This document shows positions 28,826 through 30,969 of a DNA stretch of 64,000 nt, in pieces. Both the position numbers and the translations under genes were made by a program. The stretch is from a virus. Location of the stretch: positions 1,390 through 65,389 of IMG/VR virus record IMGVR_UViG_3300029860_000005; one strand, given 5' to 3'. How positions within the stretch are numbered: position 1 is the first letter of the stretch; each line of letters opens with the position of its first letter. The notes beneath the pieces are model-generated. The model was given only the letters and a program-made list of their open reading frames with translations, did not search any database and was not told where the DNA came from.

Positions 28826-29269
28826 TTAATTTCCCTCTTTTAATTCTTTTCTTACTCGCATTAAAATTTTTCCAAGTTTGTTATATGCCATAGTATCTTG
28901 GCATCGGACACAATGGCACACGCCCCATGTATTATCATGCCAAGTATTTCCTTCTTCAAGCCAAGCTTCTCCGGTTTTCTCAAGGGCAGTCCGCAAAGTT
29001 GGGTTTTGTGTAAATTTAGCTTTTACGCCTTTATACATAACATCTTCTTTAATGTCTTCCCAGTCTTTACGAATTACACAATGTCTTCCTAATCTCTTGG
29101 ATTTGCCAGGAGTAGGAGCCAATCTAATTTCTTCTGCATCCCCGGGGTTCGCTGCTTTCATTGCCTGAAAATAGTTTTCTACCGTGAGATATCTTTTTCC
29201 TTCTATTGTAATTGGAGAGTAAAAAAAGTTACTTAAAAAAGCAAAATCTCCTTCAAATTTATTAATCAT
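28826..29269 (-). CDS. NADAR (YbiA-like) domain protein
   Basis: 'FLSNFFYSPI...YLTVENYFQAMKA' NADAR signature. Confidence 0.55.
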   Translation of the reverse strand: MINKFEGDFAFLSNFFYSPITIEGKRYLTVENYFQAMKAANPGDAEEIRLAPTPGKSKRLGRHCVIRKDWEDIKEDVMYKGVKAKFTQNPTLRTALEKTGEAWLEEGNTWHDNTWGVCHCVRCQDTMAYNKLGKILMRVRKELKEGN

Positions 29270-29497
29270 TTAAATTTCCTCAAAGTTCTGAAGATCTAAT
29301 TCGGCTAAATCTTCAAAATCAAAATCTTCATTGTCATCAATATTGACACCATACATTTCGGCGCCTTCTTTAAGATACTGTCTTCGACCTTCCATGTACC
29401 ATGTCCAGTTATCAACGCCATCCCCTTCAAGAACATTAAGTTCATTTTCAGCTTTAAGAAGTTCAAGAAGTCTTTCTTTAGAAACAATATAATTCAT
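29270..29497 (-). CDS. small acidic protein
   Basis: 75 aa, consensus promoter upstream. Confidence 0.3.
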   Translation of the reverse strand: MNYIVSKERLLELLKAENELNVLEGDGVDNWTWYMEGRRQYLKEGAEMYGVNIDDNEDFDFEDLAELDLQNFEEI

Positions 29498-29526
29498 AAT
29501 AATATCACCTTTCTTTTTATATAAAT

Positions 29527-29555
29527 ATTATATAATAATTTTTTAAAAAAATCAA
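29527..29555 (-). promoter_or_regulatory. sigma70-type promoter TTGATT-17-TATAAT
   Basis: by eye. Confidence 0.5.
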
Positions 29556-29569
29556 AAAGGAGATAAGAA

Positions 29570-30106
29570 TTATTCCTTATCTCCTTTTTCTTGAATAAAA
29601 GTTTTAATTGGTTCGCTTACAAAACAACAAATATCGCACGCAACCTTTACTGATTCTTCTGGATCGTGTTTCAAGTATAGTGCGGTTGTTGCATAAGGAG
29701 CGCCTGCTCCAATGGCAAAATAGTCTTTGATCTCTCTTACCATAAACTTACAAATATGGAAAAGATGTCCTTTATAGGCGATAAGAAATTCATTTCTTAG
29801 AAATCCATCACCAATAAGAGTATTTTTCCATTTTGAAAATTCAATAATGTAATTAAGAATTTCTCGTTCATTAGCTTCAACTGGCTGATGATTTTCCATA
29901 TAAAGCCACATTAGACTTTGTTCATCACCATAACCAACTCCGCCAAGAATTATGTCGTTAATCTTAGCAATCTTAGCAAAATTAACATTAGGTTCCTTTT
30001 CATAGCCATTAGTAAGAATACTATCAGCACTCATTACAATTCTATCATCATAAACTTTAGCAGCGACAACGCTCATTTCAATCCTCCAACTGACAGATAT
30101 AAACAT
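29570..30106 (-). CDS. HslV/proteasome-beta-like Ntn hydrolase
   Basis: 'MSVVAAKVYDDRIVMSADSILTNG' resembles HslV '[23 protein letters not shown]'. Confidence 0.45.
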   Translation of the reverse strand: MFISVSWRIEMSVVAAKVYDDRIVMSADSILTNGYEKEPNVNFAKIAKINDIILGGVGYGDEQSLMWLYMENHQPVEANEREILNYIIEFSKWKNTLIGDGFLRNEFLIAYKGHLFHICKFMVREIKDYFAIGAGAPYATTALYLKHDPEESVKVACDICCFVSEPIKTFIQEKGDKE

Positions 30107-30560
30107 CTTCGTGATGGAGAATTTTTCTAATCATTAATTGAATAATATCCCAGTCTCCTCCACCAAGACCACACCCAATTTTATAAGGAAAAGCAATTGG
30201 AACATAGCCAGGAACTAATTTATTTAAATTTTCTAAACAGCTAGCAAATGCTTCATAATTAGTATATCTACATGGGCCATATCCATAATCATATTGAGCA
30301 AATAAACTTGCTACTCTATGACCATCTACGGTAGTAGTGCAAGCAACTGCACCAAGTAAAATGTCATCAGGTGGATTTTCTAATCCTGCGACTTGCGCTT
30401 CCGCGTTTTCAATAGTTTTTTTATAATCTACATAGACTTCAGGCCAACGAATACGGATTTGTTTGGCAAGGCCTGCGCCCATAACGCCTTAACAATTCAC
30501 TTGATGACAAATTACAATTTTAGGAGGTAAGTCTAATAGACTTTTATTTTTATAATAAGT
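30078..30560 (-). CDS. TARG1/OARD1-like macro domain protein, interrupted by an in-frame TAA (30489-30491) exactly at a conserved Gln position
   Basis: 'ITYYKNKSLL...IVICHQVNC-*-GVMGAGLAKQI...PYKIGCGLGGGDW'; track ORFs 30489..30677 and 30078..30482 are in the same frame. Confidence 0.45.
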
Positions 30561-30567
30561 AATCTGT

Positions 30568-30969
30568 TTAACCACTAATTCTATCTCTATTATGATAAAA
30601 ATTACAAAATCTTGAGTCGCCGCCACAAGAACAAATTTCACGTTCCTTAGTGCCCCAACATTCTGCGGTTTTGTCATCTCTTAAATGATAACACTCACAT
30701 TTCTTAACTACTTCAGTAATTGGAACATCTTCGCTCTTGGATTCTTCTTTCTTTTCATAATGGCCCGGAACCCAAATAAGATTTTCACCATTAACTTCTT
30801 CCCAAGCGTCAGCCATCTGTTGGACACATTCAAGGCAATATTGCCAATAAGAATAACATTGATCTCGTGTTAGATCTTCGCTTACTTTGTCCCAAAGAGC
30901 GATAGGAATTCGTTCTCTAATTTCATATGTATCAGTTTTAGCTTGACTTACAGCTTCATTATCAATCAT
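30568..30969 (-). CDS. Cys-rich hypothetical protein
   Basis: 133 aa with several CxxC. Confidence 0.3.
   Translation of the reverse strand: MIDNEAVSQAKTDTYEIRERIPIALWDKVSEDLTRDQCYSYWQYCLECVQQMADAWEEVNGENLIWVPGHYEKKEESKSEDVPITEVVKKCECYHLRDDKTAECWGTKEREICSCGGDSRFCNFYHNRDRISG

Follow-up and report, generated by a model that had tools for sequence, protein, structure and literature searches.

The DNA analysed here, referred to below as the window, is a stretch of 64,000 nt from the IMG/VR virus record IMGVR_UViG_3300029860_000005 (positions 1,390 to 65,389), with a G+C content of 33% and 17 tRNA genes. We examined a cluster within it that encodes a NADAR protein, a macrodomain protein and an HslV-like hydrolase, all of them, like the other genes of the region, on the minus strand. 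A first-pass annotation had regarded the three as a candidate counter-defence cluster against DarT toxins. We find an intact NADAR gene and, in a different operon, a macro gene interrupted by a nonsense codon. The locus belongs to an early accessory region of a ~190-kb human-gut phage that appears to recode TAG, and an identical stretch was found on a 186-kb human-gut metagenome contig (L001). Thirteen genomes were compared, the window and 12 IMG/VR relatives; 11 of the relatives encode a macro protein 91-99% identical to that of the window on contigs of 113-197 kb, and the twelfth, on a short contig, encodes one with 86% identity. Megablast of positions 27500-32600 against 50,697 phage records gave no match, and no close cultured relative was found.

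The NADAR gene occupies exactly the open reading frame (ORF) to which it had been assigned. Its product scored 98.9 bits against PF08719 (E value 4.8e-28; cut-off, 35.1 bits), with profile positions 9-163 of 163 covered, and 139 bits against PHROG 1017. Homologues numbered 614 among phage records, and the best match in the cultured collection was that of Phass-1. The NADAR of Escherichia phage IrisVonRoten (Bas32), termed AdfN-Bas32, was 42.7% identical over 97% of the length (~43-44%; tblastn, 110 bits). BLASTP against the T4 homologue gp30.3 (T4 AdfN) returned nothing; the two proteins share 21% identity, belong to separate PHROGs and show their relationship in the multiple alignment only. 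There the window protein has Glu31 and Lys38 at the positions of the catalytic E36 and K43 of T4 AdfN; both are invariant, T4 AdfN and Bas32 included, as is Asp112 of the D..WG motif. The NADAR gene was intact in all 12 relatives covering it, and its ratio of nonsynonymous to synonymous polymorphism (pN/pS) of 0.13 indicates purifying selection.

Related proteins have been tested. In E. coli, AdfN-Bas32 neutralises the DarT1 toxin and allows RB69, T5 and Bas25 to form plaques again on hosts with DarTG1, while DarTG2 is unaffected (Johannesman et al. 2025, PMC11825919). For T4 AdfN, mutating E36 or K43 weakens rescue. Every NADAR subtype assayed hydrolyses guanosine-linked ADP-ribose (G-ADPr) in vitro (PMC11125620). 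The window protein resembles AdfN-Bas32 as a single-domain orphan NADAR of ~147 amino acids (aa) from a large phage of virulent type, with the catalytic Glu and Lys, the D..WG motif and an early-type accessory gene. The two differ in that Bas32 is a T5-like coliphage and the window belongs to a TAG-recoded gut phage, and in that a CHCxxC insert is present in the window protein only. Judged by these sequence comparisons, the window NADAR is most likely an AdfN-type counter-defence enzyme. The Cys-rich insert, CHCVRCQ (residues 119-125; 28895-28915, minus), also occurs in Phass-1 and in the loci L041 and L051, is absent from Bas32 and L016, and may be a small metal-binding loop.

A TARG1-like macro domain had been placed at 30078..30560. 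The class was rightly recognised, but there is no intact ORF at these positions, and position 30560 is no start codon. The likely start is the GTG at 30575-30573, which is conserved in 13 of 13 genomes and overlaps the stop codon of the upstream gene: GTGGTTAA. Translation of 30677-30078 contains ...KIVICHQVNC*GVMGAGLAKQ..., in which the hallmark motif of the macro family here, HQVNCQGxMGxG, is broken by a stop (asterisk). The intact relative P0121, called as 165 aa by gene callers, is 97% identical and comes from a cluster of 984 sequences. After in silico repair of the stop, the window macro protein scored 134.8 bits against PHROG 335, the PHROG that T4 Tk.4 matches at 223 bits. The Pfam Macro profile (PF01661), which had been suggested as a check, gave 20 bits, under the cut-off of 22, and nothing for the 134-aa ORF at 30078..30482, although many homologues at 41-48% identity do match it.

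Other comparisons gave clearer support. When a 41-sequence profile was searched against the PDB, BT1257 of Bacteroides thetaiotaomicron scored 77 bits, M. tuberculosis DarG 63, Streptomyces coelicolor SCO6735 62, Poa1p 58, T. aquaticus DarG 58 and TARG1 54. The model of P0121 (predicted local distance difference test score, pLDDT, 93) shows the three-layer alpha/beta/alpha fold of a macrodomain; Foldseek with this model returned BT1257 first (E value 2e-10; template-modelling (TM) score up to 0.80), then Poa1p, DarG, TARG1 and SCO6735, with MacroD-type viral macrodomains ranked below these. The PADLOC DarG model scored 45.5 bits on the macro protein, and PADLOC found no match to DarT among 10 neighbouring proteins. 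By profile and predicted fold, the macro domain is thus assigned to the TARG1/DarG/SCO6735 (ALC1-like) class.

Within that class, the active site is of a particular type. The relatives conserve His24, Val26, Asn27 and Gln94 together with the Gly-rich phosphate loop IGCGLGGGDW, Asn27 being invariant and Gln94 present in at least 90% of sequences. The catalytic Lys of TARG1 (K84) and DarG (K80) is replaced by the near-invariant Gln94, and the position of TARG1 Asp125 is occupied by Gly. The counterparts of Gln94 and Asn27 in SCO6735 are Gln85 and Asn27, and the same Lys-to-Gln replacement is seen in SCO6735, BT1257 and T4 Tk.4. By alignment, the domain is of the Gln-type SCO6735/T4-AdfM kind, not the Lys-type TARG1/DarG kind. 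In SCO6735, Gln85 and Asn27 are essential for cleavage of thymidine-linked ADPr from DNA (PMC9411070). To grow on DarTG2 hosts, T4 needs Tk.4, which has been named AdfM (bioRxiv 10.1101/2025.11.20.689424); AdfM of PhiKZ (gp104) is a Lys-type example of a phage macro eraser (PMC13309987).

With T4 Tk.4 and PhiKZ gp104 the macro protein of the window shares the stand-alone macrodomain of ~155-165 aa and the DarG/TARG1 class, and with Tk.4 also PHROG 335 and the Gln at the position of DarG's catalytic Lys; unlike them, it has a premature TAA, is 26% identical to Tk.4, and has relatives mostly flanked by NAMPT and NadE genes, which have been reported for neither T4 nor PhiKZ, and PhiKZ AdfM retains its Lys (K78). 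SCO6735 and BT1257, ALC1-like macrodomains without the catalytic Lys/Asp, are its best profile and fold matches and have the His-x-Val-Asn...Gly-Gln...IGCGLxGGxW active site in common with it, but they are cellular proteins, ~21-22% identical to it, and SCO6735 also de-modifies proteins. Both folds also occur among the DarG antitoxins, the macro domain of DarG2 reversing thymidine-linked and the NADAR domain of DarG1 guanine-linked ADP-ribosylation. In contrast, the window proteins (165 and 147 aa) are single-domain orphans with no adjoining DarT and no C-terminal DarT-binding domain, and the macro protein is without Lys80.

The stop within the hallmark motif is a TAA and falls on codon 29 of the gene, where the relatives have CAA (Gln). 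It divides the gene into two mechanical ORFs, 30489..30677 (62 aa) and 30078..30482 (134 aa), neither of which was accepted as a gene in its own right. In the former, macro-like sequence is limited to the last 28 codons; the remainder overlaps, in another frame, the gene for a 133-aa protein. The latter starts at Met32 and, in the numbering of the P0121 model, is without two core strands, 4-9 and 21-27, and without His24, Val26 and Asn27; the remnant should therefore, according to the model, neither fold nor catalyse. Gene callers choose the same 134-aa ATG even where the upstream frame is open, and a 134-aa call is thus no proof of the nonsense allele; CAA stands at codon 29 in five other samples whose 134-aa C-terminal product is identical. 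Synonymous variation inside the invariant HQVNCQG segment shows that the relatives do translate the N-terminal frame, and the macro gene overall is under purifying selection (pN/pS 0.14). Read-through by a phage suppressor tRNA was considered and rejected: a CUA anticodon reads TAG, and the stop is TAA, which ends most genes here. The macro gene of the window, truncated by the CAA-to-TAA change, is probably non-functional, so that at most the NADAR half of the proposed cluster can work here.

The window is not the only genome with a broken macro gene. The gene was disrupted in 5 of 13 genomes, at four different sites: by the TAA in the window, by separate TGG-to-TGA changes in L008 and L010, and by +1 and -1 frameshifts in the same A7 run in L014 and L015, which could be homopolymer errors (gene at about 5989-6486 of these four loci). 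Across the 13 genomes, ten neighbouring genes (4.7 kb) held one true nonsense event in total, in L008, in the gene for a 65-aa predicted membrane protein (tm65). Apparent disruptions of p119 and the RNA ligase in relatives proved on inspection to be C-terminal variants. If events were spread evenly by length, the probability that at least 5 of 6 fall in the macro gene is ~5e-5, or ~3e-3 when the three substitutions only are counted. Active/inactive allele polymorphism has already been described for AdfA, AdfB and RB69 AdfN, and the macro knock-outs fit this reported polymorphism of anti-DarT factors.

The HslV-like gene lies between macro and NADAR and starts at the ATG at 30076, preceded by GGAGGA; the mechanical ORF start, 30106, lies further upstream. 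Its product scored 70.6 bits against PHROG 1040 ('peptidase HslV family') and 16 bits against Pfam Proteasome, under the cut-off of 22.4. Among 45 homologues, Met1-Ser2-Val3, Asp18, Lys35, Gly48 and Gly123/Gly125 were invariant; Ser2, Asp18, Lys35 and Gly48 occupy the positions of the proteasome nucleophile, Asp17, Lys33 and Gly47, with Ser in place of Thr. The AlphaFold2 model (pLDDT 94.2) matched BPH (5OVT; E value 8e-13, TM score 0.84), followed by HslV (E value 2e-9) and proteasome beta subunits. On conserved residues and predicted fold, the protein is classed as a proteasome-family Ntn hydrolase with the predicted nucleophile Ser2. It shares with BPH, HslV, PPH and AAH the proteasome beta-subunit fold and the equivalents of Asp17, Lys33 and Gly47, and is phage-encoded; it differs in the predicted Ser nucleophile, where HslV has Thr, and in that no HslU-type ATPase is seen nearby, general scans of the cluster and other window genes having turned up no match to such an AAA+ partner. 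The phage-borne proteasome homologues PPH and AAH have been described but are uncharacterised (Fuchs et al. 2021, PMC8665760).

Macro loci (80 from IMG/VR and three encoding the window's exact NADAR, L001-L003) were clustered at 70% identity or more into 29 lineages, 27 of them outside the clade of the window. The HslV-like gene lay within 6 kb of macro in 1 of the 27. In the nearest outgroup (L016/L018), it is found 3.9 kb upstream of macro, adjoining an RNA ligase gene; in distant phages, it stands beside genes for RNA ligase, a vault-like protein, Thg1, cREC and NAD salvage, with neither macro nor NADAR. The position of the HslV-like gene between macro and NADAR is thus a clade-specific rearrangement, and nothing therefore links the protein to ADP-ribose. 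The gene itself was intact in 13 of 13 genomes and under very strong purifying selection (pN/pS 0.04). The earlier assignment to the proteasome family was borne out, but the nucleophile is Ser and there is no conserved link to macro or NADAR: this is a separate, strongly conserved phage gene, not part of an anti-DarT device.

The genes and signals, listed as they are transcribed, are p119, RNA ligase, the 63-aa gene, the 133-aa gene, macro, HslV-like gene, terminator, promoter, 75-aa gene, NADAR, 65-aa gene, terminator, promoter and metallophosphatase (Table 1). The promoter is sigma-70-like with an A/T-rich spacer; TTGATT-N17-TATAAT has 10 exact copies in the window, all on the minus strand (first bases 7743, 11553, 27535, 28617, 29555, 32944, 37163, 39784, 44076 and 58587) and 0 on the plus strand, compared with 0.08 expected by chance. 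When 27400-33000 was scanned for terminators, two of the four promoter copies there (29555-29527 and 28617-28589) followed directly on a hairpin; the others were those at 32944-32916 and 27535-27507. Two operons cover the cluster, and the genes do not each have a promoter to themselves. The operon that runs from the promoter at 32944-32916 to the terminator at 29589-29554 ends with the macro and HslV-like genes, the TAA stop of the 133-aa gene overlapping the GTG start of macro. The gp5.9-like, NADAR and 65-aa genes form a compact second operon with zero spacer between each stop and the next start. The statement that each gene has its own consensus promoter could not be upheld, as only one copy (29555-29527) lies inside the interval, and the 'small proteins' said to separate the genes come down to one, the 75-aa gene product.

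Table 1. Genes and signals of the cluster region in order of transcription (aa, amino acids)
Feature	Position	Strand	Remarks
Phage promoter	32916..32944	minus	heads p119 - RNA ligase - p63 - p133 - macro - HslV-like
p119	32882-32523	minus	first gene of RNA-ligase operon
RNA ligase, PHA02142 type	31144..32526	minus	PHROG 968, 219.6 bits; Pfam RNA_ligase, 26.5 bits; PHA02142 OB-fold
63-aa gene (p63)	between RNA ligase and 133-aa gene	minus	
133-aa Cys-rich protein (p133)	30568..30969	minus	intact in 13/13 genomes, pN/pS 0.14
Macro gene	30078..30575	minus	TARG1/DarG/SCO6735 class, PHROG 335; interrupted; 165 aa if read from GTG 30575
In-frame TAA, macro codon 29	30489..30491	minus	CAA (Gln) in relatives
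HslV/BPH-like Ntn hydrolase, 168 aa	29570..30076	minus	PHROG 1040, fold match; predicted nucleophile Ser2
Intrinsic terminator	29554..29589	minus	16-bp stem then T-run; closes upstream operon
Phage promoter	29527..29555	minus	TTGATT-N17-TATAAT; heads gp5.9-like - NADAR - tm65 operon
75-aa acidic protein, gp5.9 family (candidate)	29270..29497	minus	PF25708, PHROG 6234
NADAR gene, 147 aa, intact	28826..29269	minus	PF08719, PHROG 1017
65-aa predicted membrane protein (tm65)	28628..28825	minus	last gene of NADAR operon
Intrinsic terminator	28615..28641	minus	closes NADAR operon
Phage promoter	28589..28617	minus	heads metallophosphatase + p92
Metallophosphatase	28554-27835	minus	Metallophos, 35.1 bits
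p92	27823-27545	minus	after metallophosphatase

The 75-aa protein encoded ahead of NADAR scored 34.7 bits against PF25708 (T7 gp5.9; cut-off, 24.5) and 43.9 bits against PHROG 6234. It is a candidate RecBCD inhibitor of the gp5.9 family, an assignment that stands at the profile level, BLASTP against T7 gp5.9 having returned nothing. T7 gp5.9, a RecBCD inhibitor and DNA mimic, resembles this acidic protein in its match to PF25708; the window protein is 23 aa longer than gp5.9 and is without pairwise similarity to it. Neither the 133-aa Cys-rich protein nor the 65-aa membrane protein had a match in Pfam, PHROG or PADLOC.

Further features were noted around the cluster and elsewhere in the window. 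The RNA ligase (31144-32526), together with an AAA_33/KTI12-type kinase and a Metallophos_2 phosphoesterase (26011-27086), all on the minus strand and matched by Pfam on the identical contig L001, is a possible RNA-repair set. A 91-aa gene at 32950-33225 (minus) has a weak match to ParE toxins. An 832-aa protein with the shoulder (77 bits) and repeat (33 bits) domains of the major vault protein is encoded at 37219-39717 (minus), adjoining a gene for a 511-aa DUF2828/DUF7788 protein at 40197-41732 (minus); a similar vault-like gene stands beside the HslV-like gene in L090 and L091. Genes for gyrase A and B, PIN-PhoH, a radical-SAM/SPASM enzyme and an SPFH/flotillin-like protein were found at 11587-16629, 19271-22658 and 24324-25709 (minus). 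The lysozyme and amidase gene at 17907-19280 (minus) gave full-length Pfam matches only when 8 in-frame TAG codons were read as sense (Phage_lysozyme2, 96.8 bits; Amidase_2, 91.2 bits), the gene at 54243-56273 (minus) for a 676-aa protein with Listeria-Bacteroides repeats contains 6 in-frame TAG codons, and a tRNA with the anticodon CUA lies at 57456-57528 (minus); the phage appears to recode TAG.

We consider it about an even chance that the locus is part of an early region for counter-defence and repair and comprises an AdfN-like NADAR, probably active, and next to it a macro pseudogene of the AdfM type. The observations beneath this are the domain identities, the conserved active sites, the nonsense codon, the operon structure and the homology to tested proteins. 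One ADP-ribose eraser would then be working and one broken. On single-stranded phage DNA, NADAR would hydrolyse the N-glycosidic linkage that joins ADP-ribose to guanine; replication blocked by ADP-ribosyltransferase toxins of the DarT1 type, or by others specific for guanine, would then resume. The NADAR gene shares a sigma-70-like phage promoter with the candidate RecBCD inhibitor of the gp5.9 family. A macro protein of the SCO6735/T4-AdfM kind would strip ADP-ribose from thymidine, the product of DarT2, but is truncated here. Of the anti-DarT cluster first proposed, there remain two enzymes whose homologues have published anti-DarT activity, with the macro gene broken and the HslV-like gene unlinked.

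Several points weigh against this reading. The substrates, and a connection with DarT in the host, are what we infer from homology. YbiA and T4 gp30.3 are active on G-ADPr in vitro but gave no protection against DarT1 in one in-vivo assay (PMC11125620), so that NADAR homology is no guarantee of antitoxin function. The solved structure closest to the window NADAR is that of the housekeeping protein YbiA of E. coli (72 bits), ahead of a DarT-type/oomycete NADAR (39.7 bits), and the best PADLOC match of the window protein is PDC-M42C, a component of a candidate system, not the DarG1 model. The TAA is confined to one sample (two assemblies of run ERR912160), and could be a minority variant or an error. 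Finally, in the 27 outside lineages, the macro gene keeps different company: within 6 kb of it, NAD synthetase (NadE) was found in 16, usually with NAMPT as well (NAMPT in 14), and NADAR in 6. Such flanks point to NAD+/ADP-ribose metabolism.

On that account, which we regard as possible though distinctly less probable, macro and NADAR process soluble ADP-ribose derivatives beside phage NAD+ salvage genes, the substrates being ADPr-1''-phosphate, O-acyl-ADPr, immune signals of the cyclic ADPr type or the ADPr released by NADase defences, and the clade of the window retains part of an ancestral NAMPT-macro-NadE-NADAR block. NAMPT, macro, NadE and NADAR stand in this order in divergent phages, at 4479-7681 of L016, 4247-7754 of L041 and 4256-7645 of L058, in each case continued by p92...phosphatase, and L051 has macro-NadE-NADAR-p92 with NAMPT nearby. 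Overlaps between the stop and start codons of macro and NadE recur in the module loci, and L060 encodes a 405-aa macro-NadE fusion protein (6001-7218). The yeast ADPr-1''-phosphatase Poa1p, moreover, is among the top structural matches of the macro protein. Iyer et al. 2022 reported that Macro and NADAR co-occur in DNA-virus genomes above expectation and are also fused, that both lie in early regions with RNA-repair genes, and that NADAR adjoins NAD-salvage genes. In the 64-kb window, p92 and the phosphatase are present and NAMPT, NadE and NMNAT are all absent; the cluster thus resembles what a rearranged NAD+/ADP-ribose block would leave behind. The same absence tells against a metabolic role in this phage, as may the lack of any contig of the clade among the best 80 NAMPT loci in a search that relied on exact peptide words. 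The tested relatives AdfN-Bas32, T4 Tk.4 and SCO6735 work on DNA adducts, and the common gene order may reflect shared descent of related gut phages, not functional coupling.

A broader form of this idea, which we hold to be rather doubtful, is that the Gln-type macro and NADAR proteins of large gut and environmental phages are parts of the four-gene NAD+ module and not primarily DNA-repair antitoxins. The module, some of whose genes are translationally coupled, would then salvage ADP-ribose species or render them harmless as NAD+ is rebuilt, a further counter-defence by NAD+ reconstitution. The clade of the window would have lost the salvage genes, and the macro knock-outs would represent decay of, or fluctuating selection on, a leftover gene.

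It is unlikely that the two enzymes, with macro acting as an Appr-1''-p phosphatase, join the nearby RNA ligase, kinase and phosphatase in clearing away the ADP-ribose products left when tRNAs cut by anticodon nucleases are repaired. An RNA ligase is encoded in the operon of macro, the AAA_33/KTI12 kinase (27065-26556) and Metallophos_2 (26571-26011) genes are 2 kb away, RNA ligase genes lie near macro and HslV-like genes in other phages too, and such a role was proposed by Iyer et al. However, a 2'-phosphotransferase of the KptA/Tpt1 type, which would make Appr>p, was not found among the neighbours scanned, and an RNA ligase lies near macro in just 4 of the 27 outside lineages.

It is very improbable that NADAR, macro and the HslV-like protein act jointly against DarTG, for example through degradation of DarT by the protease: a stretch of 1.75 kb holds all three, 1 nt separates the stop of macro from the start of the HslV-like gene and the latter is strongly conserved, but in other phages it mostly lies away from macro and NADAR, and the macro gene is dispensable where the HslV-like gene is always intact. 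Least credible of all is a YbiA-like housekeeping N-glycosidase acting on reactive riboflavin-pathway intermediates instead of ADP-ribosylated DNA, which would suit the structural match to YbiA and the label 'riboflavin biosynthesis protein' on several phage homologues, yet no riboflavin genes are nearby, the window NADAR is closer to the tested AdfN-Bas32 (tblastn, 110 bits; 44% identical) than to YbiA, YbiA itself hydrolyses G-ADPr, and the gene shares an early accessory operon with a gp5.9-like one.

Phage AdfN, phage AdfM and the co-occurrence of Macro and NADAR have already been published, T4 holding both kinds in gene 30.3 (NADAR) and tk.4 (macro), and the current understanding of them is unchanged. 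If the window NADAR is active, AdfN-type counter-defence would reach beyond coliphages to uncultured, TAG-recoded phages of the human gut, and toxins that ADP-ribosylate guanine would be implied in their gut host. The macro knock-outs add a case from nature in which anti-defence genes alternate between active and inactive alleles. The NAMPT-macro-NadE-NADAR order, in turn, provides a testable lead on whether such erasers may serve the NAD+ economy of the phage as well as DNA repair.

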